64,000 nt of DNA from an uncultured Clostridia bacterium (GTDB lineage: Bacteria; Bacillota; Clostridia; Christensenellales; UBA1242). Shown here one piece after another: positions 17,701 to 42,390 of this stretch (the first letter of the stretch is position 1; each line of letters begins with the position of its first letter). Below the pieces are notes generated by a model that was given only the letters and a program-made list of their open reading frames with translations, was not told where the DNA came from and made no database searches. The position numbers were made by a program, and so were the translations under genes. The stretch is taken from NCBI GenBank assembly GCA_944377415.1, contig CALWEW010000003.1:3753-67752 (forward strand). Direction: 5' to 3'.

Positions 17701-20700
17701 CATTACGCAGGCAGGCTTTAATTCGACAGATGCGCAAATTACGAGCGGAGAGCAACACAACTTAATTCTTAATGTGGTTTCGGATAACCCTGAAAATGTA
17801 GTTATCTCGAATCCGAAAGTTTTGCGCGATGGTGTAGAACTAACAGATTACAGCGAAGTTCTTACTGTCCTTGATAGAGTTAACGGTGATGGTACCGTTA
17901 CACAAAACTATTTACTTGAACTTGATGATAGTTTGAAAAACTTGACAGAAAACAGGCAGTATCAAGTTAGTGTCGATGTGAGTGACGAAAGCGGTTTATA
18001 TGGTACATATGTATTTGACATTATCTTTACGCCATCTCCGATTACAAGAATTGATATTTCGCACTTTACTTACGGTGCCGATTCTATGACAAACGGCGAA
18101 GTGCCAAGTAATCTAATTTCCCCAGGAACTCGTGGAGTTTTGAGAGTTGAAGTAACACCTAATTATTCGCACTTTGACTATTTGCTATTTAATAGCACAC
18201 TTGAACCTACTTCAAACCAGCGTGTAATTATGCAACAAATGGTGTTGCAGAACGGTAGTTACAGAACAATTGAAGCAAACTACGATTCAAACGGTGCCCT
18301 AATTGTACAAAAAATTACGGGTTATGATGTTAACGGAAATGCTTACTTTGATGGAACGGTTTTTGTATCGACTCTAGTTGGAACTAATCTTACAGAAGGC
18401 TATAACTTTACAATCTCAGTTACTGCTATGAGAAACGGCGAAAGCAGTTATGTTTTCCCGCCAGTTTATACAAATCTTGTTACAACATTCGCTCCTCACG
18501 CAACTCTAACACTAAATTCAACAAATGGTGATGCGGTAGCGAAAGGAACAGTTGCTAACTTCGTTTTAACGGGTGAATTGTTTAATAGTACAATTACACT
18601 TGAAACAAGTTACGGAAATGGACAAACAGGAATACAATATTCGGGGTTTGCTAGTGATATTAGATTAACTTACGGGGTAGGAGCGCGCGAAACAGTTAAC
18701 GAAACCTTGCCTTTCTATGTAGGAATTGGCGCAAATGCTCCAAACGGTAGAATTACGGTTACTGTTACTATTAATTCTACAACTGCAACAGGCGGACAGT
18801 TAAATCCTATTGTTTTACAGTATACAATTTATATTGTTGATTTCGCGGTTGAAAGCGTGTATGCCGAGAACGCAGAAAACGGAACTTTGAGCGCAAGCGT
18901 GCGTTCGTACACTTTGCTAGAAGCAAATTGGCGTTTGGTTGAACCATCAATTGAGGATTACCGCACATATGTTGGTGGCGATGAAACAGCGTTTAATAAT
19001 GCTTTTAATGAAATGTATGAAAAAGCCGAAGCGAAATTAAAAGTTGTAAATGAGCGCGGAAACGGCGAGGGCGGAGTTTGGTATTATAATGATGGCAACG
19101 GTTATTTTGCAGTACAAACGGCTTTGTCTTATCCTGACTTTATCATAAGTTACACGCAGATGAATAATGGAATTTCGTACTATCTTATTCAAGGGAAAAC
19201 AATCACGACTGGAATTCCGTTTAGATTGTCATTCACAGGATATTATGTATACAACGAAAGTTTAGGCGTTTATGAATTTACTCTTGATAACGAACTTTCG
19301 TCAGTTGCGCCTGAAAACATTTTAAATTCTTATCAACATTTATATGAACAAGATTTCAATATTGATGTTATAAATGATACTTCGGAAGATACCCCTGACT
19401 ACATTGATTCTGCCGAAGCGTTGCGCAGTATGACTGCAGGCGTAAATCACATGTTGACTTCTGACATAATTCTTGACTCATGGACTCCTATTGATACAGC
19501 AATAGCATCGCTTGACGGAAATGGTTATGTAATTTATCTCCGTAGTTTTGCTGAAAATACGGCAGATACGCAAAATTACGGGCTATTTAGCACATTACAA
19601 GAAGGCACTGTTTTAAAGAACTTAATCATTGATGTTTCACATAACATTTATGTAAACTTGCAAAACGCAAGCACTGTAAACTTTGGCTTTATTGCTGGTG
19701 TAAATGACGGTGGTGTAATTTATAACTGTGATGTTGTAGTTACTGAAAGTAAAGAAGGTTGGAGAACAATTTACAATTCGCCTGACGGTAACCGTCCCGC
19801 TAGCAATAACTCTGATTTTGCCTTTGCTACATCGGTATTCAATCGCATTATGAACGACACAAGCGCTGAATATAACACTCTCGCTTCAACTTTCATTTTG
19901 ACTGATTTAAGCACTTCGGCGCGTACGGTTACAACCTATATAGGTGGACTTGTAGGGCAGAACAATGGTTATATCACAAATAGTCGCGTAGGCAGAATCG
20001 ATACTGATAACGCTCTTGGTTTTAACCGTGGATACGCGCTACAAGGCTTGAATATCTTTGCTTCGGGTAATGTCGGTGGACTTGCTGGGCAAAATACAGG
20101 CGTGATTTCAAATAGTTATTTTGCAAACGGAACAGTTGTAAACTATGGCATGTCTATTTACACAGCAACTAATAGAAATGGTGCTCGTACAGGTGGACTA
20201 GTTGCTGAACAGACAAATACAGGGCGTATTGAATCGAGTTATGCAATAGGGCAACTCGGTGAAAATGCTCAAGCCGAACTGGGTGGAATAATTGCATACG
20301 GAACTATCGGTGGACTTGTTCACTCAAATGCTGGTAGCATCACTAATAGTTACACAAATCTTCCGCTTTCAAGTTCAAATGCCATGGGTGGCTTTGTATA
20401 CGAAAACACAGGTAATGCAAGCATTAATTACTGTTATTCAATGAGTTTGATTAATAGTACAGGGCTTATAAACGGTGTGTTTATTGGTGTTGATGCCGAA
20501 GGTACTGTACAAAATGGCGAAGATGCAACAGTGGAAAATTCGTTCTATTATAGCAGTGATAACACAGTGAACGACAGCAGCGACCCCGCAACAGCAATTT
20601 CTGCAAATGAATGGGGGAACGCTCTCGGTTCGGCATTTGAGGGATTTGCAATTTCGGACAACGAAAATAGCACTTGGTATATGGATGTAAATAGACTATA

Positions 20701-23700
20701 TCTAGGGCCACAACTAACCTTTGCAGATAAAGTCTACTATTCACATCGTGGACTAGACTATACTTACGATGCATCAAGCGCTCGTGGTTCGGAAACAAAC
20801 CCGATAATAATTGCAAGTTTGAAAAACTGGCAAAATGTATTTAACTATTCTGATACTTCTGGACTTATTCGTTCGGAATTTATGACGGCAAACCCAGATT
20901 ATACGAGCGGTGGAGCAAGGTATCAGTTTGGTACGGATACAATGCACTACTATGTAGCGCTTGCAAGTGATATTAATTTTGGCAATTCAATGCACAGCAC
21001 GGCAACCGATACACTATTCAAAGGAATTTTATTAGGTAACGGCTATACGCTTGCAGGGTTGAGTTACAGACAATCAAGTACTGTTACGACTGCTGAAAAT
21101 GACTTTGGTGTATTTAATCAACTTGTAAATGCGAGCGTAACTAACCTAAACCTTGAAGTCAGTGGAGAAATTACAACAAGGGCTCGTCATATGGGTGTAC
21201 TTGCTGGAAGTGTTCACGACTCTTATGTCGAAAATGTGAACATTTCAGGTTCAACGGCTTCAACTTCAATAACGGGACTTAATATGACGGGTGCACTTGC
21301 GGGTTTTGTCTATGGAAATAGCGAAATAAGAAACATTACGGCTAGCATTTCGGTAAACTCAATCAGCGCGACCGTGTCTTCGGGACTTTACCTATACTAT
21401 AACGACAGTGAAACCACGCACTATGCAGATTATTCATACGCGGGCGGTGTAATCGGTGTTGTAGATTTGAGTGATGAAGAAGGTGCTGAAAATAACCCGA
21501 GAATACAAAACTTGAGCGTAAGTGGAAATACCGATATTTACGGTGAAATTGCGGGCGGTGTAGTTGGTATGATTGGTACGACTTCGGAAGCAAAAGGCTT
21601 AAATTTCATTTTAGATATCACAGATGAAAATGCCCCGCGCATTCGTGGCTCGAACTTCTCTGGTGGCTTAGTTGGCGAAAATCGTGGGCACATTATGTCG
21701 TCATTTGTCGGCATTGCGGTAGATGAGCAAATTGCCGAAGATTCTGCAATTAATTCGACAGACAATGCGGCAAATTATATAGGTTACACGGGGTTATTCG
21801 AAAATACCGAAGAATCAACTGCTGTTGGCGGACTTGTTGGACTTAATATTGCAGGTTCAATCGAATATAGTTATTCAAGAGTGGCTGTAATTTCAAGTCA
21901 GGCAAGAATTGTTGGTGGACTTGTTGGAATGGCAATCAATGCTCCGAATAGTTACGATACTTCTAGCGGAGATGTAACGCTTTCGTATTTGCGTAACTTG
22001 TCTGTATCACCTTCGAACATTTATAACTACGATGCAATTGACGAAATGTTCGGTTATTCATATTCAAACGGTAGTGTAGAAGTTCGTGGAGATTTGAATT
22101 TTAGTGGAACTCTATATCAGGTTTACACAACGGGTGCTATTAATGGTGGAGAAATTTTAGGTGGTGCAGTCGGCATGATGGTCGGTGCTCCGATATATTC
22201 AAATTACACTGATGCGCTAGTAGTTGCGGTGAACAATTATAACGCGAGCGACCGCACATTAATTGATAAAATTAATGACGAAAATGTGTACTTTGGTGGT
22301 GTAGTCGGTTATGTGGGTTATACTATGAGCGGAACTACTTCTGTTGCTCCATTCATTAGTAATAGGGAAGTTTCGGGTGAATATACTATTGGAACTCCTG
22401 CTCAAACTGTAAGGGCAGTAACAAGTATTGCAGGTAATTCTCTTGATGCCGTTGGAAATGCTCAAGCGATTATCTCAGTACGAAGCACAGATTTCTTGAC
22501 TTGTGCGACAAGTACAGTAAATGACCCATTTGCAAGTTTTAGTGATACAGTTTGGTTGCTTGACTCGACACGCGTTTCTCACCGTTTCCCAGTGCTTATG
22601 TCTAATTATTCGGCTACCATTTCAGAAATTGATTCTGTAGAAGACTTCTTTAACTATTTAAGCGATACAAATACAAATAGTTACGGTCGTATTGTAACTG
22701 ACCTTACAATTACAGGTGATGATTGGAATAGGTATATTTTATCAAATAACCTTAACTCAATTACAGAAGGCAATGACTATGTAAGTGGTAGGCTCGAGGG
22801 GGCTGTGCCGATTACAGTTTCGGGACAAGAAACTACGCGTTCAGCGACAATCACATTCACAAACTTTACAACTTCAAGTGGTGTAGATGTTTCAAATACT
22901 TTCTGGTCACTGTTTGGATACACTGAAGGTTTTAGGCTTATAAATGTTGATTTTGTATTTGACTTCACAATCAATATGACAAATCATACAATTTCAAACT
23001 TCGGTGTGCTTGCTCGTGAGAGTAACGGTTCAAGTTTTGAAAATGTATCAGTTACATTTACAGAAAATAATTCTGTTACTGTAAATAATTTAGGCAATAT
23101 TGCATTAATTACTGGTACTTCTCAAAATTCAAGTTATACAAATGTAGTTGTGAATGGTACTATAAATACAATAAGTGATGGTTTCACAAGTTCGACGGGC
23201 AGCGTTGCTATTGGGGCGCTTTTTGGAAGCGGAACAGTATCTAACACAATTTACGGAACATCATTTGGAACTATTGGCGTTAATTACACATCTAATAACA
23301 ACTATATTTTATATATCGGCGGACTTGCTGGAACAACTGACGGCTTGTTAAGTGTTCGTAGCGTGTCAGCAGCAAATCAATATAACTTAACAACTAATAT
23401 TTCTATTACAGCAAACTCAAATACAAATATTATGTATGTCGGGGGCGTTGTTGGGCGTACTAATGGTGCAACACAGTTGACAACACTTCGAATCGACGGT
23501 ACATTAAATGTAACAAGAACAAACGCAACTTCGACTCAAAATTCAAATTCATACATAGGCGGAATTGCGGGTAGTTTGTATAACACTAATGTGAGTGATG
23601 TAACAAGTAATGTAGAAATTGCTTCTAACATTGCTGGTGGAAATGTATACTTAGGTGGGCTTGCAGGTAATTTGATTAATAACCATGAATTTACAGGAAC

Positions 23701-26700
23701 AAATTCATCAATGCAATTCAGCGGTTATGTAACAAATGGCGCAAACTTTACAGGCTCAATTTCGCACACAGCGGACTCTAACCTTGATATATATGCGGGG
23801 GGCATATACGGTTTTGTTCAAAACAGACTTAATATGTCTAGTAGTACGGCACTTCCTGTTGGTCAAGCACGACTTATTCTAAATGCAATGCATTCAAGTG
23901 GAAGCATAACAGTTAATACAGCCGCAGTTAGAATTTATGGCGGTGGCTTAATCGGTAGAGCGGCTCAAGGCGTAATGAATAGCGGGACTTATGAGGAACT
24001 ATCTGCTCCTAATAACATTTTACGAATTTCGAGCAGTGCATTTACAGGGAGTCTAGATGTAACAAATAATCAATCAAGCAGTGAGTCTTCTATGTGGCTT
24101 GGTGGAATTGTGGGGAACTCACAACTCGCAGTTTATGATTCATTATCGAATGGAACAATATTCTTTAATGCAGAAAATGCGCTTTCGCTTTTTGCTGGCG
24201 GAATTGCAGGTTCTACAAATACTGATATTGGATACTGTATCGCGCTTTCATCTGTGCAATACGATATGCCTTCAACTTCGGCTAATACTAGTGTGAATGC
24301 TATCCGTGGTATTCAAGACAATGAAAATGCTCGCATTGTATACTCGTATTATTCGGGCGAACTTTGTGGCATACTTGACTTGTTTGGAACAAATTTAACC
24401 GCGATGCAAATGCTAGATGCTACAAACTTTAGAAATAATAACACAAATATCTTGACAAACTTCACTTATGCGACCAGAACAGATGCAGACGGTAACACAG
24501 TTCAAGCATCATTTATGTATCCTACTGAAGTTGAGGCTTATTTAGACCTAACAAGTGGCAGCGCGAATGTTCCTGTATTTGTTGAAAACATGTCTATGCT
24601 TCAAGGACAACTGTTAAACGAAGAAACACCGAACAAGATTATTTACATTAACACTGAACAAATTGATGTAGCGGGCATTCCAAATATTGAAATTGCAAAT
24701 GCTCGTAAAATAGTAGGTAATGGCGTAGTTATATCTGTTGCTGATACTACTACAAGTGGTAGGTCGTCAAGCGGTGTATTCGTTGATATTCCTCGAAATG
24801 TTGTCGTTTCTGGCATAAATGTTGAATACGCAAAAGTCTTAATTAATGCAAGTAGTGATTTTGACTTTGGTGGACTTGCTGGAAATAACTTTGGTTCAAT
24901 TTACGGGGTTAGTGTAAGGGGGGTAGCAAGTGAGTCGATACAAAATACAACGGCAAGCGGGTTTGCGAACCTTACAAGCAGGTACACGGACAACTTTACA
25001 GGCCTTACAAATAATGATGATGCGCAAATATTCCTGAATACATCGGGACAATATGCAATTAACTTTGGTGGCGTGGTCGGACTAAATCGTGGTAGTATAG
25101 TAGGAGTTTTAAGTGATATAAATATTTACTCAAACGGTGGCTCTGTAAGTTTGGGTGGGATTGCTGGAAGTTCGATAAATTCTGTCATGAATAATAACAT
25201 GACACAAGGCAGAATTATAGTCGACAGCATGACAAATGAAACCTTTATTGGTGGAATTGCTGGTGTTGCGACAAATTCATTTATATCATCAACTTTTGCA
25301 AATAATAATATTACAGTATTTACCGTTGTTAGTGGCAATGTTGGGCTTGCGTTTGGTAGTTTTAGTGGACTTAGTAGTGGAATTGTAGTTAATAGCGATG
25401 TGAGTGGAAATTTGTCAATTGGCGACACAAATTCTTACTACACAAATGCCTTAACTACTAGTCAATATTTAACCGCATCAAGTATTAATAGCATTATAAA
25501 CAATACGGCAAATTACTTTAATAGTAGCATTTGGACTATCGGCGATAATACACAAAATTACGGTTATCCATACCTAAATGTATTAAATGTAGATTTCGCT
25601 ACTGGTGATGGAACGCAGGCGAATCCGTATAAATTAAGAGAAGGTTCCGAATTTATTAGGCTTACACAAAATACAGCATCAGGAAGATACTTTACACTTA
25701 CTCGCGATGTTATGATTTCTACCGACACTTTGAGCCTAACTTCAAGCGGAACATTGCGTGCGACAGAATTTAATGGTGGCGGATATGTAGCAGTTATTGA
25801 AGGGCTGATAACTCCGCAGTCGAGTGGTGGCACTGTTTATGCAAGTCTATTTAACAACATTTCTAATAGGTCGACAGTTCAGTCGTTTGGTGTTGTTATA
25901 AATGAAAGTGCTATAATAAATGAAAATGGCACAGGTTATACAATCTATTTTGGTGGACTTGCAGGTACGAATAACGGAACAATCACTAATTGTGCGGTTC
26001 AAAGTCTTGGTAACATTACTTTAAACTCGCTTCCTAATTCGCGTTTAGGTGGATTGGTTGGACAGAATACAAACATTATAGAAAACAGTTGGGCAGATGT
26101 TGACTTCGTTGCAAATGACGGTTTTATCGGCGGACTTGTTGGACTGTTAGGCACTAATACGAGTGCTGATAGCGAAAGCACCGCGGTAATACGCAATAGT
26201 TTTGCAAGCGGAGATTTGAATATCACTCAAAATACAGCAAACTCAAACTATACATCAACGGCTGTTGGTGGGTTAGTAGGTGTTGCAAATGCCGAAAGTG
26301 GTACAGGCAGTATTAGAGATTCATATGTCTATGGGGCAAAGATTAATGTTTCGTATAGAGATACAGAAATCTCTTATGTTGGTGCTTTAATAGGTAATGC
26401 AATCAAATTTAGTACTTACAGAACTTATGCGTATGTGTTTACTCCTAGTGCTCAAGATACTAACTATGCGGGGGCAGGCGTTTATACAGACCTAGCAATG
26501 ACAGGTAATGTAATTGAGGGCGCGTTTGACTCGACAAGTTGGGTATCTGTATGGCTGGGACCTTATGTAGATGTTCCAGTAAGACAGGAAGCCAACGACC
26601 TTTGTGCTGTGATTAATATTAGTACATTGCGTACAACGGCAATAGGTACTGGTGTTTACTCAGAATGGATAACATCTGCATGGACACGAAACCCAGGTGT

Positions 26701-26806
26701 TGCAGAGCGTAATGAATTTGTTGTGTACTTAAATAATGTTACTCCTGTTGATAAACAAGAAAGAGCAGGTGACACGACTAATCCTAACGACATATTTGAT
26801 TACTAA
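11777..26806 (+). CDS. giant (5009 aa) surface lipoprotein with Ig-like (Big_2-type) domains and six GLUG-motif beta-solenoid supermodules
   Basis: Uninterrupted 15 kb ORF. Lipoprotein signal MTKSIKAKYFTFILLFVILAFLGLAGC, with the lipobox Cys at nt 11855-11857. A Big_2-like segment is present (TITATVEGL...IRITARNAGTTVLRVV). There are dozens of GGLxGxxxGxIxN repeats, for example VGGLAGEINGS, IGGLIGYIAGG and VGGLVGYSEGG. No C-terminal anchor. Confidence 0.9.
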   Translation: MTKSIKAKYFTFILLFVILAFLGLAGCGDIYQNLRVTVSTNNVELYLDRTEFDESGVEVDLSTTTITATVEGLSGDMISDVDFWYRDNNIVNAEVVSVNGNESTIRITARNAGTTVLRVVSRELSTVYSEDITVTVYRDPDSMHFLDQKISVPVGTSLELVTNNLIGFEPARVYPSTATFSLLTPDNELWNDAYGTRILNGVSIQDNVLIVDENAERGIVQIEALMPNGVHCAFNVLIYSNIDESQIHLYSQERRISLDDMFGRNNAEYRILTPRDAGWNASYSSTTVSGVTLSSSTLVLASGVSNGIVQLGITVGDTEYFGYVLIHSKDNADLAQVIPESQRSLSLVDLVGQANFSILDTPSPLWDSSYGTYSLRGVSISNGILNIDSGYGSGVVQIAVNYPDGSTDTMIIMVYGNSTSAIKAATVGEVETLKFAINSDEMNRGSYYVVNDDTLNPNVNIRVTTGNSDVLVASSLDNNYRFTLTSMESGTTTVTVNIDIIDPVTNEIYTTFSRTYNVEVIRIARQVILSGDGLSATADPAEMLLQDYYYNVLGAEVNVMVSPEEARDRSYIIRVVEIDGSTENITAGMNSLNIYVNGRNYVNDQGVTGYNEYIYGERLQNGTSFYVSLDSANNVISHTVKLAIIANTYDPDLPYVQNIVTFTITAGVTEITSSSDIVEVGLGETSEFTLSYLTSAGANVGTPDFEITVANEDIISLTGANYTYTVSGLKEGYTEITFTAASGVTLTLPVYVYIIPLAFYISGDHSYENSNIASDEWNDAEYVNPADNLIDAGVTSVTVKRNNRYYFDLVALPAGITANSLSVSIGTNDANGEYISLSQIDEDYTFSFYARNVTTTPVIITVSFSYRTHVNGVWTTVASTRTLEVNIYNPVTLFYWNGTNNATSTTVQLYDKNSLNINQQNLSTTQLNIYTNTDATVYQNGGSVEWTVDNPDLLSISENGFSATITANLTDYSLSSYTAYVYATINDYGTERTITCRVNIIVPQMVESIEVTNYNDNEGVRLNDLGTQQRTSFTINTRVLPNNAFNSEVGYLLYSAENIDGKIVATEIYTGAESDAVVRFDPTEPNRIIAQNAGYAVIRIYPLDRVNSENVNFDSIYHVDIWVIVEDGEVNPYSIYTAEEFVSIGSSAEALTKNYVLMQTIDLSNYSSYFPLGSEFGSNFSGSLDSYNYSTNGRKMSVLGITLNNSFALTSSEILGGLFGRVSGSINNIDFVFSERSAFNLADITASNLDVHAIKIGLLAGVLDGEVNNVVARMNNFTNTSNMISINGLDNADYAISVGGLAGEINGSASASYVNVAIRTDLGVSTLYLGGLAGIFNGTTIGQAGDEVTSRVRITASRAYIPDSENSRIGGLIGYIAGGNVYGQNVTGQVVATLYDYVGGFAGRNDGTLGYFDTANNTEYRVLSGVKTQGHNYVGGLIGYNTGTVNYARVENYEDTTITGVNQAVVSGNNYVGGLVGYSEGGRVTYSYSIGYISQDFTANGSYNGDVIGAEFVGGLIGYAHNTYITSSFAANCILVNSTNTGTAGGLIGQMQIDAGVDISTSTVWNAYANGYILTDNLDTTKTGELIGVYDVQGGSAYVDTCYAHVVISNFDNSTVYRNLFGTNVSGANVANSYYLADTTESITDIDNITSIGVSHDDMIAQDGGFGSNAYIGWGFGDANSNQAWVIYDPDTMQGVNDDLPLLYDRDRGWLYNQAINNIEISYATLQQDGDLLPTFFNYNDLGTVVVLENIDEVDGEKRLNIHNTGTDTANGLFNINVLPLLDPTQWSLSVTSSNSNIAEVVQDNLNLVDAYIVFKTTGVVNITLQSLLDVSASVTVTINVVGGFNEFDILDENDDSITTSGSNVISIKQGSGALLLQYFETSANYNDSYGIKFSTNDTSYFEFSGYEYTGTSVYIPYTQPNLLGGVAATTDAYPNGLEMRACPYFVLVFSGAKINYSLENYVTPKNFYVNVYYGITQAGFNSTDAQITSGEQHNLILNVVSDNPENVVISNPKVLRDGVELTDYSEVLTVLDRVNGDGTVTQNYLLELDDSLKNLTENRQYQVSVDVSDESGLYGTYVFDIIFTPSPITRIDISHFTYGADSMTNGEVPSNLISPGTRGVLRVEVTPNYSHFDYLLFNSTLEPTSNQRVIMQQMVLQNGSYRTIEANYDSNGALIVQKITGYDVNGNAYFDGTVFVSTLVGTNLTEGYNFTISVTAMRNGESSYVFPPVYTNLVTTFAPHATLTLNSTNGDAVAKGTVANFVLTGELFNSTITLETSYGNGQTGIQYSGFASDIRLTYGVGARETVNETLPFYVGIGANAPNGRITVTVTINSTTATGGQLNPIVLQYTIYIVDFAVESVYAENAENGTLSASVRSYTLLEANWRLVEPSIEDYRTYVGGDETAFNNAFNEMYEKAEAKLKVVNERGNGEGGVWYYNDGNGYFAVQTALSYPDFIISYTQMNNGISYYLIQGKTITTGIPFRLSFTGYYVYNESLGVYEFTLDNELSSVAPENILNSYQHLYEQDFNIDVINDTSEDTPDYIDSAEALRSMTAGVNHMLTSDIILDSWTPIDTAIASLDGNGYVIYLRSFAENTADTQNYGLFSTLQEGTVLKNLIIDVSHNIYVNLQNASTVNFGFIAGVNDGGVIYNCDVVVTESKEGWRTIYNSPDGNRPASNNSDFAFATSVFNRIMNDTSAEYNTLASTFILTDLSTSARTVTTYIGGLVGQNNGYITNSRVGRIDTDNALGFNRGYALQGLNIFASGNVGGLAGQNTGVISNSYFANGTVVNYGMSIYTATNRNGARTGGLVAEQTNTGRIESSYAIGQLGENAQAELGGIIAYGTIGGLVHSNAGSITNSYTNLPLSSSNAMGGFVYENTGNASINYCYSMSLINSTGLINGVFIGVDAEGTVQNGEDATVENSFYYSSDNTVNDSSDPATAISANEWGNALGSAFEGFAISDNENSTWYMDVNRLYLGPQLTFADKVYYSHRGLDYTYDASSARGSETNPIIIASLKNWQNVFNYSDTSGLIRSEFMTANPDYTSGGARYQFGTDTMHYYVALASDINFGNSMHSTATDTLFKGILLGNGYTLAGLSYRQSSTVTTAENDFGVFNQLVNASVTNLNLEVSGEITTRARHMGVLAGSVHDSYVENVNISGSTASTSITGLNMTGALAGFVYGNSEIRNITASISVNSISATVSSGLYLYYNDSETTHYADYSYAGGVIGVVDLSDEEGAENNPRIQNLSVSGNTDIYGEIAGGVVGMIGTTSEAKGLNFILDITDENAPRIRGSNFSGGLVGENRGHIMSSFVGIAVDEQIAEDSAINSTDNAANYIGYTGLFENTEESTAVGGLVGLNIAGSIEYSYSRVAVISSQARIVGGLVGMAINAPNSYDTSSGDVTLSYLRNLSVSPSNIYNYDAIDEMFGYSYSNGSVEVRGDLNFSGTLYQVYTTGAINGGEILGGAVGMMVGAPIYSNYTDALVVAVNNYNASDRTLIDKINDENVYFGGVVGYVGYTMSGTTSVAPFISNREVSGEYTIGTPAQTVRAVTSIAGNSLDAVGNAQAIISVRSTDFLTCATSTVNDPFASFSDTVWLLDSTRVSHRFPVLMSNYSATISEIDSVEDFFNYLSDTNTNSYGRIVTDLTITGDDWNRYILSNNLNSITEGNDYVSGRLEGAVPITVSGQETTRSATITFTNFTTSSGVDVSNTFWSLFGYTEGFRLINVDFVFDFTINMTNHTISNFGVLARESNGSSFENVSVTFTENNSVTVNNLGNIALITGTSQNSSYTNVVVNGTINTISDGFTSSTGSVAIGALFGSGTVSNTIYGTSFGTIGVNYTSNNNYILYIGGLAGTTDGLLSVRSVSAANQYNLTTNISITANSNTNIMYVGGVVGRTNGATQLTTLRIDGTLNVTRTNATSTQNSNSYIGGIAGSLYNTNVSDVTSNVEIASNIAGGNVYLGGLAGNLINNHEFTGTNSSMQFSGYVTNGANFTGSISHTADSNLDIYAGGIYGFVQNRLNMSSSTALPVGQARLILNAMHSSGSITVNTAAVRIYGGGLIGRAAQGVMNSGTYEELSAPNNILRISSSAFTGSLDVTNNQSSSESSMWLGGIVGNSQLAVYDSLSNGTIFFNAENALSLFAGGIAGSTNTDIGYCIALSSVQYDMPSTSANTSVNAIRGIQDNENARIVYSYYSGELCGILDLFGTNLTAMQMLDATNFRNNNTNILTNFTYATRTDADGNTVQASFMYPTEVEAYLDLTSGSANVPVFVENMSMLQGQLLNEETPNKIIYINTEQIDVAGIPNIEIANARKIVGNGVVISVADTTTSGRSSSGVFVDIPRNVVVSGINVEYAKVLINASSDFDFGGLAGNNFGSIYGVSVRGVASESIQNTTASGFANLTSRYTDNFTGLTNNDDAQIFLNTSGQYAINFGGVVGLNRGSIVGVLSDINIYSNGGSVSLGGIAGSSINSVMNNNMTQGRIIVDSMTNETFIGGIAGVATNSFISSTFANNNITVFTVVSGNVGLAFGSFSGLSSGIVVNSDVSGNLSIGDTNSYYTNALTTSQYLTASSINSIINNTANYFNSSIWTIGDNTQNYGYPYLNVLNVDFATGDGTQANPYKLREGSEFIRLTQNTASGRYFTLTRDVMISTDTLSLTSSGTLRATEFNGGGYVAVIEGLITPQSSGGTVYASLFNNISNRSTVQSFGVVINESAIINENGTGYTIYFGGLAGTNNGTITNCAVQSLGNITLNSLPNSRLGGLVGQNTNIIENSWADVDFVANDGFIGGLVGLLGTNTSADSESTAVIRNSFASGDLNITQNTANSNYTSTAVGGLVGVANAESGTGSIRDSYVYGAKINVSYRDTEISYVGALIGNAIKFSTYRTYAYVFTPSAQDTNYAGAGVYTDLAMTGNVIEGAFDSTSWVSVWLGPYVDVPVRQEANDLCAVINISTLRTTAIGTGVYSEWITSAWTRNPGVAERNEFVVYLNNVTPVDKQERAGDTTNPNDIFDY

Positions 26807-26820
26807 TCTAATAAAAAGAA

Positions 26821-26860
26821 AAAGATATATCAAAACCACCGATATATCTTTTTTATTTTT
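26821..26860. terminator. bidirectional rho-independent terminator between convergent genes
   Basis: AAAGATATATC (26821-26831) pairs with GATATATCTTT (26841-26851) across a 9-nt loop, with an A-run upstream and a T-run downstream. Confidence 0.65.
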
Positions 26861-26961: not shown

Positions 26962-28182
26962 CTAAACCTGCCTTATTACTTCGGCAAATGTTTGACTCTC
27001 ATCGTAAAATTCTGGCTTGCCTTGAATGTAATTCTCCCTAATTAGTTTTATGTGGCAGTTGCATAATTTATCCAGAATATCTAAATAATCCCTTAATTTT
27101 TCATCAGTACAATTTGTATAGCCCGAACAAATTATACTTAAACTTCCATTGTTTGTATTCCTACTGTAAGCAAATAAGCGTTTAAGTTGTTGCAAAATTT
27201 CGTCATCATAAGATTTAGCAGGACAACGGTCAGACAATAAATCACGCAAGTTTGTCATAAGAGTAGTAATATCGTCAATTATTAATACAACATTATTGCC
27301 TAATTCGCATATACGCTTAATTCTGTCAAGAATAATTTCAAAATAAAAATTAATGTCAGCAGGTAAGGTATCAAAAGTTGTAAAGAAGTACTCACAGTTT
27401 TTAAGTAAGATTTTTTCTTCGGGGCGCTTACAAACAGAAAAGTAGACAACTTTGTACCTTTCATCTAAATCTTTTGCTATACTGTTGCATAAGTAAGTTT
27501 GTCCTGCACCGTTTTCACCGACTATCATTAAACGCTGACCAATTTTAAATGGACAAACCTTATTTATAAATTTTAGTTGAGGCAGAGTAAATTCTATTGT
27601 GTTACTTATTGGAGAAATTTCCATTTGAGCAAAGTCTTGACGAGTAAGTGTTGGGGGACAATCGTTAATTTCGTAAATTTCAAGCACGCGCGGGGTTCTT
27701 TCTTGGAAGTGTATACCGCACTTGATTTTATCACCATTTCGCAAATTTTCAAAGTGTAGTGTGTTTTCTTCAATAATAGCGTAAACATTTATATCCAGGC
27801 TTTGAGAACTTGTAGGGAAGAAATACAAAGTGTCGCCAATGTATTTTACAAAACCCGTGTAAATATTTTCACGCACTTCTTTTAATTTGCTGCCTTCGGT
27901 CGAGTATAATGCGCCTGTTGTTTTCGAAAATGCCTCAAAGCCAACAAGTTTATTCCATTCACTGTCAGGAATAATTTCTTTTTTGTGAGGTCTGCCACTT
28001 TTAATTTTTAAATAAGGCTCAACTTTTCCTGTAACAACATCAACTATTGCTTGGCGCAATTCCTCCGCTTTTAATGCAGTAGGGTTTCGCACGCCTATTT
28101 TAGAGCCTACTTCTCGTAGTTGGTATAAATTTAGTGTTCTTAATTTTTCAATATCAACTCTGTATTTATCGTTTTTGTTCAT
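26962..28182 (-). CDS. Rho-like protein (Rho_N, OB/RNA-binding-like and RecA-like domains) with degenerate ATPase motifs
   Basis: Collinear similarity to E. coli Rho, aligned from memory. N-terminal helix bundle: LNLYQLREVGSKIGV..P.ALKAEELRQAIV. OB region: ENLRNGDKIKCGIHFQERTPRVLEIYEIND versus [32 protein letters not shown]. P-loop position: GQRLMIVGENGAGQT versus GQRGLIVAPPKAGKT. Also VVLIIDDITTL versus VIILLDSITRL, and GSLSIICSG versus GSLTIIATA. Confidence 0.7.
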   Translation of the reverse strand: MNKNDKYRVDIEKLRTLNLYQLREVGSKIGVRNPTALKAEELRQAIVDVVTGKVEPYLKIKSGRPHKKEIIPDSEWNKLVGFEAFSKTTGALYSTEGSKLKEVRENIYTGFVKYIGDTLYFFPTSSQSLDINVYAIIEENTLHFENLRNGDKIKCGIHFQERTPRVLEIYEINDCPPTLTRQDFAQMEISPISNTIEFTLPQLKFINKVCPFKIGQRLMIVGENGAGQTYLCNSIAKDLDERYKVVYFSVCKRPEEKILLKNCEYFFTTFDTLPADINFYFEIILDRIKRICELGNNVVLIIDDITTLMTNLRDLLSDRCPAKSYDDEILQQLKRLFAYSRNTNNGSLSIICSGYTNCTDEKLRDYLDILDKLCNCHIKLIRENYIQGKPEFYDESQTFAEVIRQV

Positions 28183-28465
28183 AATTTCCTCTTTTGTTTA
28201 GAAATATTTTATCATATTACACACAAAAAGTAAAATATTTTCTTGATTTTTGTGAATGTCGTACAAAAAAGTACAAAAATAATAAGAATTTAACATATAT
28301 AATTAAAATATTGTAATACATCTCCTAGCTTTAGTGCAATTCAATTTATATGTAGTTTTTATTTTATGCTAAAATAAAATATAATAGGGAATATTTTTGA
28401 GTGTTTTTAATCCCGATTAAAAAATTTTTAAATAATAATTAACTATATTTAAAACCTTAAAAATA

Positions 28466-28499
28466 AAAGAACATGCGAAATAAAATCACATGTCCTTTT
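28466..28499 (-). terminator. probable terminator after the 2790-aa gene
   Basis: Minus strand reads AAAGGACATG...CATGTTCTTT (one mismatch), followed by a T-rich run, 14 nt after the stop. Confidence 0.4.
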
Positions 28500-28512
28500 A
28501 GATTATAAATTA

Positions 28513-31500
28513 TTAACGAACTTTCATGCGTGTACGCATAATGATGAACATTATAACAAGTCCAACTACAACGACACAAGCAACTACAATTAAAATAATT
28601 GCAGCGGTGTTCAGTGGAACATCAATTGTGAGCCTATTACTTGAAAGCACATTACCACTAGCAGACTGAATTTGTACTATATATGTTCCTGCTTCGTTAT
28701 AATTAAAGTTTTGTGGTTCGACAACGGTACCATTTTCAGCATTAATCGTATATACAATTTGACCGTTTACTACAATATAGCAGTCACCAACACGCTCGTA
28801 AATGCTGGCAGGGTTAATTGTAATTGTAAAGCCTGAAGTACTTGATGACCCCCAATCGCGTGAACAACTGATTGTAGGAATTTCATTGTTTATCCAAAAG
28901 TCGAAAGTATAATTTTGACTTGGGTTATAGCCTGTTCCAGCATATCTAACAGTGATTGAATATCTGCCTACACCGTAGTTATCAGGGTCAATGTATATAG
29001 AGTGAATTGTACTGTTTGTTCCTCGCACTTCGTCAGTAATATCAGTTCCCGAACGAACAACTGAAATAATTTCGTAGCCTGTCATGGCTGTGAATTCATA
29101 ACTTGTCAGTGCTTCATTAGGGGATAGAATTGTAAATTGATAAGTTGAAACCAAATCAGCAGAATTTGTACCAACTACCGAGCGAATTGAGCCGCGCATT
29201 GAAACTGTGTAGACACCAGGTTCTGTAAAGATATAGTGTCCGTCTGTTGCTGCGAGTGTGTACGCCTCATTATTTCTTGTTATGCTTACTTCTAGAGAGT
29301 CATATTCACTCAAATCACCCGAGAAAGTAGTAGGAATGTATAGGTCAACATCATTAGAGAATGTTGCATACTGAATAGGAGCAAGGTCGTTTACATAATA
29401 AACGACTTCATTTAATAGATTTAGGGTAAATTCTGTATAATTTGCACCAAAGTATTGATTTTGGCCTACAGCATCATGGATTCGAATAGTATAAATACCT
29501 GACTGCGTAAGTAAGATATTTCCGCTTGTATAAGTGCCAACTAACACATTGTTGTACCATAATTCGAGGGAATAGAAGTCTGCGTAAGTATTTTCTATGC
29601 CTGCTGTTGTAATACTACTGTCATAGTAGGTGGTTTCCCATGTCAGAGTTGCTGTCGCGTTTTCGGTATCGGTCAGGCGTTTGTAAATGTTTCTAGAATT
29701 TGAAGTAGGGGTTTCGCCGTTAATTCTAAAATTAGTTGCCGATGAAATATTTGAAGTAGGAATACGAGTTACCGCAAAGTATGTGCTAATAACATGAGTT
29801 GTAGTTCCATAAACATTGCAAATTCGTGTGTTTCCGAACTCGTCAACCACACGATAGTTTAATCCTTTATCTCTATTTCTTACAATTTCAATATTTCTAT
29901 CCCAGTCACTATCAGAACTAAGGAAGAAGTATTGAGGCATTGACATATTTGATGTCGTTCCGCCTGTGGTCATAGCATAATTATATGGTACAGAATGTGC
30001 AGTAAGTTGAGTTGTGTTACCTTGTGAATCAAGCTGATATACTCCATACACTGAAACTTCATATGAGCGAATTGTAAATACACGCGTTCCATTTGAGTAC
30101 ACACCCATTGAGTTATAAAGTCTTACGGTGTATACACCTTCTTCACTTACGGTAGTAGGCGAGGTGATTTCTGTTTCTGTGCCGTCAGGACTAACAAGTG
30201 TTACATACGGATTAAATAGAGAGTTTGTTTGAGACCACGAAATCATAACAGGTCTTGATGTAACATCGTTAATTAGTGGTGAGCCCGCAGTATCTGTTAT
30301 TGAAATAGTAGGGAAATGTGTGTAAATCACAAATTCGAAGATTGTTGCGGTGTCTGTATAATTGTCAACTGCGATATGTACAAGATAGTGAATATTTTGT
30401 GTGGCATTGAATGTTAAGTTTGTTACGCCGAGTGACATGTCATCAATAGCCAAATCAAAGTATGGTGAATCGGTTGGCAAATCGCTCACCGTTCCATCTT
30501 GATTTGAGTTCGTGTAGAGCAATGTGTTTGTATCAAGGTCGGTTATGCTTAAATTAATTCGCAGAGCGCTAGACTGATACCTAAACAATACATCATTTGA
30601 AGTGTAAGTATAAAGAGTTCCACCATATTCATATTCCATAGTTCCGCCTGAGTATGTAAGTTCACGAACTACACTTGTGTCAGTTGGATATGAATAGGTA
30701 TAACTTCTACCAAAATTATCTGTAAACTCAAAGCGGTAGGTTACATTGCTAGCAAGCCTAAAAGTGTAACCGTTTATGATTGAATCATCAGTAATATCAC
30801 TTGCGCTGTTAGGTAAAGGCTTTAGATTAGCATCATAAGATTGTAAACTACCATCACGATAAACACGGAAGTCCTCGAGCCATGTTGAAGGAATACTGCG
30901 TGTGTCAGGAAGCCTAATTGTGAATGTATTGTCGTTGTTGACAGTTATCAAACTTAGGAAACTTTCTTCGCTGTCGATAAGTAATGCGCCAGCTGTGTTG
31001 ATATAAATCACGATGTCATTATCGCTGTTTAATCTGCTATGAATTGTAAGTTGAATGCGACAACCTTGAGAATTGGAGTAAGTAAGAGCCGTTTCTTGAA
31101 TGAAGTTATTTATGTTTTGAATGATAGTGTCGATGTTGTTAACTGTTACCCCACTGAATGTAGGTAGGTTGGTAAGCGTGTCATCAGGAGCGTAATAGTA
31201 TGTTTCGCGCTCTTGTTGACCCATAAGGTTGCGAATTGTGAAAGTTGTCCACAAGTCGCTACTTTCAATTAAGTCAAATCTAAAATCGCCACTATTAAAC
31301 TCAATTATATCTTTGTTATTGGGGTAGTACTGCTGGTTGTTATAGTAAACAGTTGTCCCAGAAGCCGTAGTGGTGTAGAAGTCGATGCTGTCGTCATTAA
31401 TTGTAGCATGCATCGTAGAATCTCCACCTGTAACAAAAATTGTGTAAACTCGCATGTTACCTGCGGTGTCTTGTTCAATAATGTCGTAATAACCAGGCTC

Positions 31501-34500
31501 TGTGATTGTTGTACCAGTCGCTTCGTTTATACCTCCACGATAAACGGCAAGGTGGTAGTCAGGGTTAGTGGGTGAGAATATGTTTTCTGCATTTTCGTCA
31601 TAACCAGGTTGACCTTGAACTACTGTTTGTTGTAGGTAATTACCAGTATAATTCTCATGGCGGAAGTAGTAGTATTCAAGGCTCGATTCATACTCATTTA
31701 AGTAGTCAAGTGTAAAGCTTGAAACCGCGAATGCATATGACTTTAAGAAAGTAACATTATCGTTATCTATATTTTCAATTAAATAATCAGTAAAGTTAGT
31801 TCCGCTTGTGTTGAGTGAGTTTAGGTAGACATCGTTTTCAATTAGGTTTACAAGGTTTTGGTAGGGTGATGTGTTGTCTACATAAAGTGATTGTGTTGTT
31901 TCATAATAAATCGACTGATTAGACATGTTCGGTGCATCATAATCATCGGGAGACATTGCGATGTAGTGTACATTTACAGTGTACTCGACATCGACGAGTT
32001 TATTTTGATAAAGTGATGTATTTTCATAGTCTGCACGAGGTAGAAGAATATAATAGTTATATACTCCATCTACGCGCATTTTGTAAAATTCGCTATCGCT
32101 AAGGTTAGTTGATTCGAGCGCTGCATTTATAATAGCATCAAGTTCAGCCTGCGTTTCGCGGTAAATAAATGTTACATTTTCAATTTCGTCAGGGTCGGAA
32201 AGTAGTTCTTCATATTCGTCAGCATCACAGGTAAGTAAAATTGGGTTAGAGAAACTGTAACTTGTAGTTGTACCAGAATTTTCATTTCCGTCTGCATCAA
32301 TTTTGGGATTTGATTTTGTGTAAATTGTTTTGTATACTAGCACATCATTAAAGGCAAGTTGGGCTGTGTATACATCAGTTGGGTCAGACCAACTTATGCG
32401 CACTTTGTCTGCACCAGTTACATTTGATTGAGAAATATCAATGTCTGTAAATGTTGTATCACCACTTTGGAAGTTAAAATCTGGGCTAATTCCTGTGAGT
32501 TCAAAGTTAAATATTGTATAATTTGGTGATAAGTCTATTAAATCATTTCCATATGTGAGTTCCTCAAAATATGTTGCATCGCCATTCATTACACCCGTTG
32601 TGTTTGCTAGGTCAAAGAGAATAACTCGATATTTCCCAACATTTGTAAATGCGTGTTTTAGATTGTCAAGAGGGTAGCAATCGTATGCTTCGCTTGCATT
32701 GTTTCTATATATATTAGAATAGAAACGCTGGTTATAGAAAGTGTAAATTCCTGTGTTTGAGCGTATAAATGTTTGCACAACTACTTGAACTCGCGAACTA
32801 TTTTGATAAGCATCGAAGATTTCATTTAGCAAAGTTGCGGCTTGACTTTCGTCAATTTCATCGCCAACAGGATAGTAATATTTGTCGTAAACACTGTTAC
32901 CGTTATCGGCTGCCCAAGTGCTTAAGTTTATACTTGCGGGTAAAATGTTACTATCAATCACCATGTTAGTTGGTTCACTAGCTGGGTCATTGGTCGCATC
33001 AAATGTTAATACATCACGGAAGATATCACTATTTGATGTACGACTAAATTGATTAAATGTAACTCCACCATAATCAGGATAACCTTCATACTCGCCCTTG
33101 TCATAACCAAAGCCTATTGAAATATCACTTCCGTAGTTGCTTGTATCGGTAGGAATAATAGGGTTGCGGTCAAGGTAGTAAGTGTAAGTTCTTACCAAAG
33201 TATCGCCACCTGCTTCTGCCGAATTTTCGTCAAAACCGTCGTGATATGTTCTAATGATTTCGTACATACCTGCCGAACTTGCAGCTCCGCCGTACGACTG
33301 AACATAGTCAAGAGGCACTAGTACACTAGTTTGGTAGTGAGTAGATGTAACGCTTCCGCTTGCTTCGACAGTAAATATTTGATAGTCAGACTCGCCGTCG
33401 CTATCATAAATAACTGTATCTTCATAAGAGTCAGAGTAGGGGTAGTTTTCGTTATCTTTATTATACGAGAAAGGATAGAAGCGAAGGACTATGCTGTCTA
33501 TTGTAAAGTATTCGTCTGCGACAGTCCAACTAAAAGTTACATAACGGCGATTTGTCGAGTATGTGTTTGGTACGACTTGACTGTCAGTAACTTCGTCTTC
33601 TGTACGAATGCTTTCAACTAATACAGGACCATCTGCGTTAGGTTCAAACGAGTCATAACTGCGTAAAGTACCTTGTGAGCGGTCAAGATTTACATCAACG
33701 GTAAAATTACCATTGTAATTGCGCATTTCATCATACACACGAATTGTATAACTTAGCGAATTGCTGTTGGCAAATTCGTGAATAGGGTGATTTAAATTAT
33801 CTACTACACCTTCTGGGCGAATTTGTGTTTGATGCGTGTCAGTTGAATCTGGTTTTGGGTCAACTGAAATAGTTCCCCACCAGTTTTTAGGAGTTCCGTC
33901 CGTGTCGATGTATGGTGTTATCGTTTCTGTTGTGCCATCTGAGATAGAGAACTCAACGCTATCAATAGGGGTAATATAATTATTTGCACTAATTGCAGAG
34001 TTTAGGGCATTTTTAACAATCTCATCTGCTGTGAAAGTGTTATTTGAAAGTGTCCATGTGTAGTCGCCGTTTACGAAGTCCAAAATGTCATTAATTTGAT
34101 TATCGGTAGATGATAGTTGATTAATAGAAATTGATTTGTGTGTGCCCCAGTAGAAGTCTGTGTCGTCGGTAATAATATTTACATATGAAGTTTGTTCTGG
34201 GTCTTGCAAAATTTGTGTTTCTGTGTCATCTAAAATCGTTATGAAAATCGCTGTGTTGCCCGCAGCATCGGTGAGAAGTAGCACTGCAAATTGAGGACTT
34301 GATATAATTTGTGAGGTGGGTAGGTTTGTGAATACATCAGTTATATCAACTTTATTGTAATTTATTGCGGGAGTAAAACCTCCAAAGGAAGAATCTGTGG
34401 GCATCAACACATTTTGATTTGAAGCCGCCATGCTTTTCATTTGTTCGATATAACTACTGTCTAATGAGAAGCTTCCATCTGTCTGAATACTTGAGTAAAC

Positions 34501-37046: not shown

Positions 37047-37072
37047 CAAAAAAGCGGGGTAACCGCTTTTTT
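37047..37072 (-). terminator. rho-independent terminator after the coupling-protein gene
   Basis: AAAAGCGG-GGTA-ACCGCTTTT hairpin (37050-37070) flanked by A and T runs, abutting the stop at 37071-37073. Confidence 0.6.
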
Positions 37073-39427: not shown

Positions 39428-39817
39428 ATGAGTGCACTCATGTTTCAAGCGGCCAACGCTATTATGAACTCTGCTGCAGGCTTCCCTTTGTTAGCTGATG
39501 GTTCAGACCCTACAACACCTGACATTAATTCAGGACAATGGGCTTGGGTAGGTGAAATTGTTGATGCAATTAACACAATTCTTTATCCTTTGCTAATTCT
39601 TCTTGCTACAGCAGGTGTGATTTACGCCATAATTTTGGGTGTAAAATTAGCGCGTGCCGAAAGTGCGGACCAGCAACAGGAGGCAAAAAAGCGTTTGGTA
39701 AACTTTATTATTGGTCTTGTTGCGGTAATTGCGTTGATACTTCTCATGAAGTTGGTATGTACTTATCTTCCTGAATGGGTACCTAGCCTTTACATTGACA
39801 CTTCAACAGGTAACTAA
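39428..39817 (+). CDS. small two-helix membrane protein, VirB2/TrbC-pilin-like topology
   Basis: 129 aa with a GGAGG ribosome-binding site. A possible signal peptide ends at ...FPLLA/DGS. Two hydrophobic helices (ILYPLLILLATAGVIYAIILGV and LVNFIIGLVAVIALILLMKLV) are separated by a charged loop, KLARAESADQQQEAKKR. It is the first gene of the T4SS arm. Confidence 0.5.
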   Translation: MSALMFQAANAIMNSAAGFPLLADGSDPTTPDINSGQWAWVGEIVDAINTILYPLLILLATAGVIYAIILGVKLARAESADQQQEAKKRLVNFIIGLVAVIALILLMKLVCTYLPEWVPSLYIDTSTGN

Positions 39818-39835
39818 TAGGCTAGTAATTTATAA

Positions 39836-39893
39836 TGAAAAGTTGATAGTAATGATAGTAGTGTTTATATGCTATCGACTATCAACTTTTTTA
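39836..39893 (+). terminator. probable terminator/attenuator after the pilin-like gene
   Basis: AGTTGATAGT...ACTATCAACT forms a 10-bp outer stem and TGATAG/CTATCG an inner helix, followed by TTTTTT. Confidence 0.45.
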
Positions 39894-39894
39894 T

Positions 39895-40085: not shown

Positions 40086-40122
40086 AATTAGTAGAGACAA
40101 AAAATAAAAGGAGTTTACAGAT

Positions 40123-42102: not shown

Positions 42103-42134
42103 ACTAAATATCATTTGCGTAAACGCCGTTCGTA

Positions 42135-42318: not shown

Positions 42319-42390
42319 ATTTTGCAAAAATATTAGAGTGCGCTATTTTTGCAAAATTTCACATTTATTTCACATAGATGCAAAAATCGT

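Follow-up and report, generated by a model that had tools for sequence, protein, structure and literature searches.

A full-length Rho derivative with altered catalytic residues, encoded beside giant genes and a type IV secretion-like cluster in uncultured Clostridia

The window analyzed here, a 64,000-nucleotide stretch of DNA from an uncultured Clostridia bacterium (assembly GCA_944377415.1, contig CALWEW010000003.1, positions 3,753 to 67,752), contains a minus-strand gene at 26962..28182 (stop codon at 26962-26964) for a 406-residue protein related to the termination factor Rho. This gene is located 330 nt downstream of an 8373-nt gene on the same strand (giant gene 2, 28513..36885), whose 2790-residue product has hydrophobic helices at its N- and C-termini, and is convergent with a 15030-nt plus-strand gene (giant gene 1, 11777..26806) encoding a predicted lipoprotein of 5009 residues with an LAGC motif and weak GLUG motifs. 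An initial annotation, made from the sequence alone, correctly placed the 406-residue protein at these coordinates, next to an 8.4 kb gene and opposite a 15 kb gene, and took it for an RNA-binding Rho relative that no longer translocates. We find that it is a true Rho derivative, far outside the curated Rho family, which keeps the three-domain fold but very probably not the canonical ATP-driven cycle of RNA translocation, and whose gene is associated with the giant genes and a cluster resembling a type IV secretion system (T4SS).

A word-indexed search retrieved 26 full-length homologues and otherwise solely two canonical Rho proteins. The family alignment used below comprises 23 homologues, 35-64% identical, together with E. 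coli Rho (its numbering was checked internally, and the ATPase segment agrees with PDB alignment text). Several database copies of the protein (P0001 and cluster members) are called as 434-444 residues, evidently N-terminally over-extended versions of the 406-residue open reading frame (ORF).

The relationship to Rho is apparent at the level of both profile and fold. In an hhalign comparison with ten canonical Rho sequences, the alignment extended over 330 columns and all three domains (99.95% probability, E 7e-38), with ~23% identity over the aligned columns, bearing out the collinearity with Rho, from the helical N-terminal domain through the OB domain to the RecA-type core, that had been read from the sequence. 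Against the PDB, the family profile matched Rho chains at E ~1e-19 and the next family, the type III secretion (SctN-type) ATPases, at 2e-5, so Rho, not these ATPases, is the nearest relative. The AlphaFold2 (AF2) model of the window protein has a pLDDT of 85, and its top 50 Foldseek matches in the PDB are all Rho (~320 residues at 2.8-3.3 A, TM ~0.63-0.72). Comparison with the Rho models of the domain databases, proposed in the initial annotation, gave a mixed outcome. The NCBIfam Rho model PRK09376 matches residues 10-356 (E 6e-24), with a score of 84.6 bits versus a cut-off of 315; the scores for TIGR00767 (70.1 bits, cut-off 509) and NF041509 (paralog_Rho2, short form; 53.2 bits, cut-off 628) likewise lie far below threshold. 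Pfam ATP-synt_ab, a domain that Rho also carries, matches all 23 family members (37.1 bits versus a cut-off of 29.5 for the window protein). Pfam Rho_RNA_bind matches none of the 23, and Rho_N matches eight, all below threshold (best E 0.039).

Most positions of the Rho catalytic center are altered, and several of them in the same way throughout the family. The Walker A-like loop, G222-E-N-G-A-G-Q228-T229 (27496..27519, minus strand), has Gln in place of the Walker A Lys (Rho K184) in 23/23 proteins; in the window, the P-loop V-G-E-N-G-A-G-Q-T-Y can be read directly, with the Gln codon CAA at 27499-27501. The Gln of the GENGAGQT loop reported earlier turns out to be a family-wide trait. G222, G227 and Q228 are invariant in all 23, and the position of the Walker A Thr (Rho T185) is occupied by T, D, N, E or S. 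The segment V250-C-K252-R-P-E-E256 (27415..27435, minus strand) aligns with Rho I-D-E211-R212-P-E-E, and the earlier pairing of FSVCKRPEE with Rho LLIDERPEE held up in both HMM and profile alignments. In this segment, the catalytic Glu (E211) is replaced by Lys (K252) in 23/23, P254 and E255 are invariant, and the Arg valve (R212) varies among K, R, M, N, C and P, with Arg in the window protein. The initial annotation had called this stretch the Walker B acidic pair and declared it lost, which was a mislabelling: LLIDERPEE is the catalytic-Glu and Arg-valve segment. The Walker B strand itself, V298-V-L-I-I-D303-D304 (27271..27291, minus strand), retains the Walker B Asp (D303, equivalent to Rho D265) in 23/23 and carries a second Asp (D304, in place of Rho S266) in 21/23. 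The conserved Lys (Rho K298) is kept as K334, as is the GS of the strand that follows it. The hhalign alignment ends at Rho position 354 of 438, with 23 residues left in the window protein, and ~50-70 Rho residues are missing from the C-terminus; the Arg finger (R366) is without a counterpart, and the remaining C-terminal residues contain no conserved Arg. This truncation, the invariant Lys in place of the catalytic Glu and the ~50-residue insertion described below had all escaped the initial annotation.

A second label also required correction. The Rho segment PASGKVLTGGVD, described initially as an R-loop that was shortened in this protein, is the Q-loop, according to the Rho literature (PMC11347177). 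The equivalent segment (residues 311-330, including CPAKSYDD; 27193..27252, minus strand) is two residues shorter and unconserved rather than deleted. None of its 20 positions is invariant (entropy 2.45 bits), and the span between the Walker B Asp and the conserved Lys measures 31 residues, versus 33 in E. coli Rho, other members being 0-1 residues shorter. The Q-loop residues K283 and T286 are not retained, and the position of the R-loop residue K326 varies. Nor did the proposed RNA binding find support: 5/6 residues of the primary RNA-site pocket are not retained in the hhalign alignment, which is moderately reliable in the OB domain (Pro, Tyr and Ile stand at the positions of R66, D78 and Y80, and E108 and Y110 fall in a gap), only the window protein has the sixth, F64, as F121, and Rho_RNA_bind is absent, as noted above.

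The changes to K184 and E211, the missing Arg finger and the altered Q-loop and RNA pocket make canonical ATP-driven translocation by this protein very unlikely, in agreement with the initial annotation's claim of a disabled hydrolysis and translocation apparatus. Of the three catalytic residues that the annotation had considered might yet be conserved at shifted positions, the Asp is indeed kept (D303), and the Lys and the Glu are Gln and Lys, respectively, in every homologue. Because these two substitutions are invariant in 23/23 proteins, they are not the result of chance or sequencing error. We consider it highly probable, from the alignments and the predicted fold, that the protein is both a descendant of Rho and not a motor.

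The distribution of conserved residues along the protein runs opposite to that in Rho, in that the N-terminal module is the best conserved part. The N-terminal helical domain (Rho_N or helix-extension-helix-like; residues 9-50, 28033..28158, minus strand), aligned by hhalign with Rho residues 8-48 and formed in the AF2 model by helices 11-16, 19-29 and 39-50, has 14/42 invariant positions. It is followed by a family-specific basic linker (residues 51-82; 27937..28032, minus strand) with 12/32 invariant positions, among them P56, Y57, K59, K61, G63, R64 and P65 (KxKSGRP, within P-Y-x-K-x-K-x-G-R-P) and D73, W76 and G81 (D-x-x-W-x-x-x-x-G). The linker lies within a ~50-residue insertion relative to Rho, at about residues 50-100, immediately after the helical domain, with low pLDDT and no secondary structure in the AF2 model. 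Only 4/68 positions are invariant in the OB (cold-shock-like) domain (residues 108-175; 27658..27861, minus strand), five strands in the model and equivalent to the primary RNA-binding domain of Rho; the RecA-type core, identified with ATP-synt_ab and the Rho profile, spans residues 201-390 (27013..27582, minus strand). Altogether, 26 of the 48 residues invariant in the family fall within residues 9-82. Canonical clostridial Rho sequences show this N-terminal pattern as well, down to a G-[RA]-P motif that follows the helical domain, so this module was inherited rather than invented.

The gene is under purifying selection: for the orthologues in loci L010 and L018, dS is 0.45 and dN/dS is 0.087. 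This bears on the idea that we are dealing with a decaying, functionless rho remnant, as might be suspected from the loss of most catalytic residues and from scores far under the Rho cut-offs. The ORFs of the homologues are intact and of similar lengths in >26 lineages, the promoter and ribosome-binding site are conserved, and simple decay is excluded by the invariance of G222, G227, Q228, K252, P254, E255 and D303, with D304 in 21/23. Given dN/dS and the 48 invariant residues, a remnant is barely credible, and a dead pseudogene is excluded.

The same invariant positions could be taken to indicate an NTPase or nucleotide switch with a rewired site, in which K252 would replace the phosphate-binding charge lost at Q228 and D304 would serve as the catalytic base. 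Their retention at 35-64% identity does imply a pocket under selection, and the reciprocal charge swap does not look like random loss, but conservation does not extend to the Walker A Thr, the Arg valve or the Arg finger, and close relatives devoid of any P-loop, described next, keep both the gene and its genomic context. We regard a rewired active site as improbable.

A filter-free profile search of 1.8 billion representatives returned 2661 proteins at E <= 0.001, canonical Rho included, of which the best 150 were typed by motif. Among those 150, one group shares the same N-terminus and has D-K-R-P-E-D and V-D-D motifs with an intact GSGK[TS]; another lacks the P-loop entirely and consists of short forms of 350-390 residues; and a large group of ~500-residue proteins combines an intact P-loop and a preserved Q-loop with D-Q-S-P-E-T, in which the catalytic Glu has become Gln. 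Metagenomes thus hold a large, unnamed radiation of Rho-like proteins with altered sites (P0035-P0175). Several remote members share the genomic setting described below. The gene for P0036 (28% identical, intact P-loop) is convergent with a giant gene whose product is 31% identical to that of giant gene 2, P0033 (P-loop lost) comes after a giant gene 2 homologue, and P0068 (26% identical, no P-loop) is encoded beside a VirB6-like gene and a VirB4 gene whose product is 51% identical to that of the window. The P-loop-less lineages P0033, P0034 and P0068 and a remoter lineage that keeps GSGKT are all linked to the same system. Since P0036, with its intact P-loop, is linked as well, the association is older than the Lys-to-Gln change, and since it persists in lineages that have no P-loop left, ATP hydrolysis cannot be essential to the function that they share. 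P0035 is encoded in a group of sporulation genes, and neither giant genes nor T4SS genes are found within 10 kb of it.

T4SS-like genes lie upstream of giant gene 2. One encodes a VirD4/TraG-type coupling protein (37071..39035, minus strand; Pfam T4SS-DNA_transf, E 6e-51), conserved in this place. The plus-strand block at 39428..47913 encodes a T4SS pilin-like protein (39428-39817), a 659-residue protein of unknown function, an 818-residue VirB6-like membrane protein (42464-44920) and a VirB4-like ATPase (45181-47913). The 818-residue protein matches families of mycoplasma integrative conjugative elements (ICEs) (MMCAP2_0566, E 2e-45; Mbov_0396), which links this clostridial cluster to the T4SS of the Mollicutes type. 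Further away, a minus-strand gene (54216..55235) encodes a 339-residue protein of unknown function that has no match in PDB, Pfam or NCBIfam and gave a poor AF2 model (pLDDT 48). Its family is confined to the same lineages of metagenome-assembled genomes (MAGs) and is rich in invariant His, Asp and Tyr, as in F-P-H-x-H-R-P. As for the 2790-residue product of giant gene 2, its last 350 residues (28516-29565, minus strand), which close with a transmembrane helix and a basic tail, show 53-85% identity to the window sequence across 11 species, versus 40-77% for the whole protein.

Loci of the Rho-like gene were collected from one genome per species, from assemblies and from one metagenome scan; L001-L003, which share the protein P0025, and L015, which repeats one of their contigs, were counted as one locus. 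The order VirD4, giant gene 2, Rho-like gene and convergent giant gene is found in 15/17 distinct full-length loci and persists down to 32-40% identity of the Rho-like protein. The metagenome scan, started from giant gene 2, yielded one locus, and there, too, the Rho-like gene lies downstream. In 14 of the 15 syntenic loci the convergent giant gene is homologous to giant gene 1; its place in L016 is taken by an unrelated gene for a 2566-residue protein. The host genomes, of human and ruminant gut origin, belong to uncultured Clostridia and Christensenella-like MAGs. One contig labelled Alistipes finegoldii, a member of the Bacteroidota (CAVEBU010000008, locus L016), carries the clostridial arrangement with a 32% identical Rho-like protein, and is probably misbinned. 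The linkage to giant genes, which had been noted for this one locus, is therefore stronger than originally claimed, extending to 15/17 loci and to the remoter relatives. We consider it very probable that the Rho-like protein belongs to the giant-gene and T4SS-like system.

The cluster does not appear to be a mobile element. Neither a relaxase nor an integrase was found in the T4SS-like cluster (window positions 11777-51441), and the far flank, with genes for Lgt, an M50 peptidase, a ParA-like protein, MreB, Ppx, the 339-residue protein, a PP-loop ATPase, Flg_new and VirB4, is syntenic in another species (L033) whose Rho-like protein is just 48% identical. The synteny of the flanks between species indicates a vertically inherited chromosomal feature rather than a recent mobile element. 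We rejected the ICE interpretation on these grounds, namely the lack of a relaxase or integrase and the syntenic housekeeping flanks; the cluster looks like a domesticated chromosomal machine. A known mobile-element gene was likewise rejected: the plasmid (PLSDB) and phage (INPHARED) collections contain only canonical rho, 24-34% identical, and no family member. Searches of Pfam, NCBIfam, PADLOC and PHROGs with the Rho-like protein gave no significant match to a known conjugative T4SS component or to a defence or phage family, and a role in defence was dropped, since PADLOC and PHROGs returned just weak generic P-loop matches. Near these genes, a SpoVT/AbrB-type regulator is encoded 6.5 kb from the cluster (4704-5222, plus strand), and in the remote locus L027 such a gene (750-1280) adjoins the VirB4-like gene; genes for the sporulation proteins SipL, SpoIIR, SleB, YpeB and SpoIIID recur beside Rho-like genes in L022, L024 and L033.

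The setting invites the idea of an accessory of the secretion machine, a ring-shaped factor that would bind single-stranded DNA or dock substrates and work with VirD4, for example in handling transferred DNA where no relaxase can be recognized. The conserved place beside VirD4 and the giant proteins, the remote P-loop-less relative adjoining VirB4 and VirB6-like genes, the lack of a relaxase or integrase in the cluster, and the capacity of the Rho OB domain to bind single-stranded DNA (as stated in the title of PDB entry 1pv4) all fit such a role. Yet we know of no T4SS with a Rho-like component, the protein has neither a membrane segment nor a secretion signal, its OB pocket is unconserved, and two loci (L004, L013) have kept the gene in a housekeeping neighborhood, while its relative P0035 is encoded among sporulation genes. 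A part in secretion appears quite unlikely.

The Rho-like gene looks like a separate transcription unit, since a terminator-like hairpin with a T-run (28464..28500, minus strand) closes the 2790-residue gene directly at its 3' end and a promoter-like site precedes the Rho-like gene itself. A consensus scan placed this site at 28206..28234 (minus strand; TTTACT, a 17-nt spacer and a TG-extended TAAAAT), and TTTAC[AT]-N17-TGnTAnnnT occurs 51-65 nt 5' of the start codon in 12/15 loci. Both this promoter and a good ribosome-binding site ahead of the ORF are kept across loci. Two TTTTTGTA repeats, 10 nt apart, are located 5' of the -35 element (28262..28279, minus strand). In most loci, 1-3 copies of TTTT[TG]GTA with ~10-nt spacing stand 30-45 nt 5' of the -35 element (upstream regions of L001-L019), and the 15 upstream regions hold 20 copies versus 0.8 expected from shuffles. 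A role of TTTTTGTA as a cluster-wide operator was rejected, as the whole window has 13 copies versus 12 expected; what stands for these repeats is their conservation between species at one place, ahead of the Rho-like gene. Ten of the 13 window copies of the octamer are intergenic, and some precede unrelated genes. The junction between the convergent genes contains a palindromic hairpin (GATATATC ... GATATATC, 26816..26858) flanked by an A-run and a T-run, and similar hairpins are present at the equivalent junction in other loci. The intergenic regions of the cluster are extremely AT-rich.

These features suggest a different function, that of a DNA-binding transcription regulator or nucleoid-type protein whose SAP-like helical domain and KxKSGRP linker, which to our reading resembles an AT-hook, would bind AT-rich double-stranded DNA at the promoters of the cluster, its own included, the Rho body acting as an oligomerization scaffold. 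The module in question is the best conserved part of the protein, its GRP core with flanking Lys residues is AT-hook-like, with a weak match to Pfam AT_hook (E 0.45 at best, in 2/23 members), and both the repeats before its own promoter and the AT-rich intergenic regions would offer targets. Nonetheless, canonical clostridial Rho, an RNA-acting protein, has this N-terminal pattern too, the TTTTTGTA octamer is not enriched in the window and also stands before unrelated genes, and the protein contains no helix-turn-helix or other established DNA-reading domain. A DNA-binding regulator is thus unlikely.

A different line of evidence comes from the composition of the messages. Most genes of the window have more G than C in the sense strand, (C-G)/(C+G) ranging from -0.05 to -0.28. 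The values for giant gene 2 (+0.09) and the gene for the 339-residue protein (+0.16) are the two highest among the 28 window genes. C-rich, G-poor RNA is the classic composition of Rho utilization (rut) sites. Rut-like 100-nt segments of this kind make up 24% of giant gene 2 and 35% of the 339-residue protein gene (11-39% across the loci tested), whereas the other genes mostly have 0-4%, with 9-20% in a few minus-strand genes including the Rho-like gene. The excess of C over G recurs in 9/9 homologues of giant gene 2, whichever strand they occupy, and in the 4/4 members of the 339-residue family tested (loci with C-biased homologues are L001, L004, L005, L009, L012-L014, L016, L018, L024 and L033), and the two biased families are exactly those found directly upstream of the Rho-like gene. 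This composition is the one observation that points to a role at the RNA level; it lends suggestive support, obtained post hoc, to the initial annotation's idea that the protein could modulate termination or polarity in the long transcripts.

Long rut-like messages are also what a dominant-negative antagonist of the host Rho would be expected to shield, its dead subunits poisoning mixed hexamers. Changes of the Walker A Lys and the catalytic Glu are classic poisoning substitutions in ring ATPases, and the mRNA of giant gene 2 is rut-like in composition. In addition, Clostridia include Rho-positive as well as Rho-negative species (PMC13613805). On the other hand, identity of ~23%, the 50-residue insertion and the missing C-terminal interface region with the Arg finger make co-assembly with canonical Rho doubtful, and the host Rho is itself presumed, as is the status of paralogue given to the protein in the initial annotation: no canonical rho was found in the 564 kb of sequence examined. 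Poisoning of the host Rho seems improbable.

Homology to Rho, the substitutions with their invariance, purifying selection and synteny are matters of observation. The explanation that we prefer, drawn from sequence, predicted fold and synteny, is that selection maintains the protein as a working part of a T4SS-like cluster that is chromosomal, inherited vertically and equipped with two giant surface proteins, and that it would act as a passive, non-motor ring or scaffold that binds nucleic acid. Its active surface would be the N-terminal helical domain together with the basic KxKSGRP linker, inherited from clostridial Rho, and its target may be the expression of the adjacent genes with their long C-rich, G-poor mRNAs. 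It might occupy the transcript or the elongation complex where the real Rho engages, or hold the transcript, so that the 8.4-kb message is completed. Taken as a whole, the proposal of a non-translocating, Rho-derived nucleic-acid-binding factor dedicated to the cluster and acting on adjacent gene expression is tentative, and we put it somewhat short of an even chance; a mechanism at the RNA level, considered separately, is possible, though doubtful. The most specific version, in which this branch of a wider radiation of full-length, catalytically altered Rho derivatives in uncultured Clostridia would be a dedicated ATP-independent factor that protects the 8.4-kb C-rich giant-gene message or prevents its termination by mimicking Rho, is on present evidence an unlikely one.

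Several observations weigh against this proposal. The correlation with excess C is post hoc, concerns two gene families and may reflect amino-acid composition. The residues with which Rho recognizes cytosine are not conserved, and conservation of the OB domain as a whole is poor, which makes RNA binding in the manner of Rho doubtful. In L004 and L013, the Rho-like gene lies among housekeeping genes, and neither giant genes nor T4SS genes occur within 10 kb; in both, it is placed directly behind a homologue of the 339-residue protein gene (L004 8897-9979; L013 8828-9916), and in a rough neighbor-joining tree the clade of these two is nested inside cluster-linked clades. In the L024 relative, the giant gene is convergent with the Rho-like gene, not upstream of it. 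AT-rich double-stranded DNA would be an equally plausible ligand for the helical domain with the AT-hook-like motif, and the invariant P-loop glycines, Q228, K252 and D303/D304 (D304 in 21/23) could mean nucleotide binding or even rewired hydrolysis. Finally, no source gives any of the homologues a name or annotation.

Rho is treated as a uniform, essential motor. Here, the Rho fold has outlived the change in its motor chemistry, complete and under strong selection, and it is tied to a specific cellular system, a chromosomal T4SS-like cluster with surface proteins of 2.8k and 5k residues in uncultured gut Clostridia. Were transcripts its target, the protein would offer a natural handle on how very long genes are completed and on antagonism of Rho by its own derivatives; in the Rho-mimic version, a termination factor would have become its own antagonist, hard-wired to giant genes and serving a domesticated T4SS-like machine. 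If it acts on the secretion machine, it would be an unexpected component for a Gram-positive T4SS. Either way, it defines an unnamed protein family, on which we found no paper in the published literature.

Compared with E. coli-type Rho (TIGR00767/PRK09376; PDB 1pv4, 3ice, 7x2r), the protein shares the order and fold of the three domains, the Walker B Asp, P-E-E, K298, the GS motif and the N-terminal pattern of clostridial Rho. It differs in having Gln for K184, Lys for E211 and Asp for S266, no Arg finger, an unconserved Q-loop, R-loop and RNA pocket, an insertion and a short C-terminus. It resembles the second-copy Rho proteins ("Group B", NF041509) in being an additional Rho-related protein beside a presumed main Rho. 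However, the second copies on record have no N-terminal domain and retain their catalytic residues, and surveys of Rho diversity are confined to proteins recognized by the Rho domain models (PMC11347177); the present family is the reverse, with the N-terminal domain best conserved and the catalytic residues changed. Proteins called Rho-like in the literature (RHON1 of plastids, cyanobacterial DUF4912 proteins and single-domain forms) have one or two Rho domains (PMC13613805, PMC11347177), including the N-terminal one, whereas all three are kept here. The "Hodor" megaplasmids, for which no Rho-like gene is mentioned, encode giant sortase-anchored proteins of 7.3k residues together with Rep/Par genes (PMC12934698), and these features led us to reject them as the same system.

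The anti-Rho factors Psu (phage P4) and Rof/YaeO would produce the same outcome if the Rho-like protein shields transcripts, and structures of Rho-Psu and Rho-Rof are among the fold matches; those factors have unrelated folds and bind Rho from outside, while the present protein is itself derived from Rho. The nearest conceptual parallel, by functional analogy, is provided by the non-catalytic subunits F1 alpha and V1 B, in which the fold is likewise kept and catalysis lost. In F1 alpha, Gln replaces the catalytic Glu, and V1 B has lost the P-loop. The metagenomic D-Q-S-P-E-T group of Rho-like proteins shows the same Glu-to-Gln change as F1 alpha. In the family described here, the Walker A Lys has changed as well.

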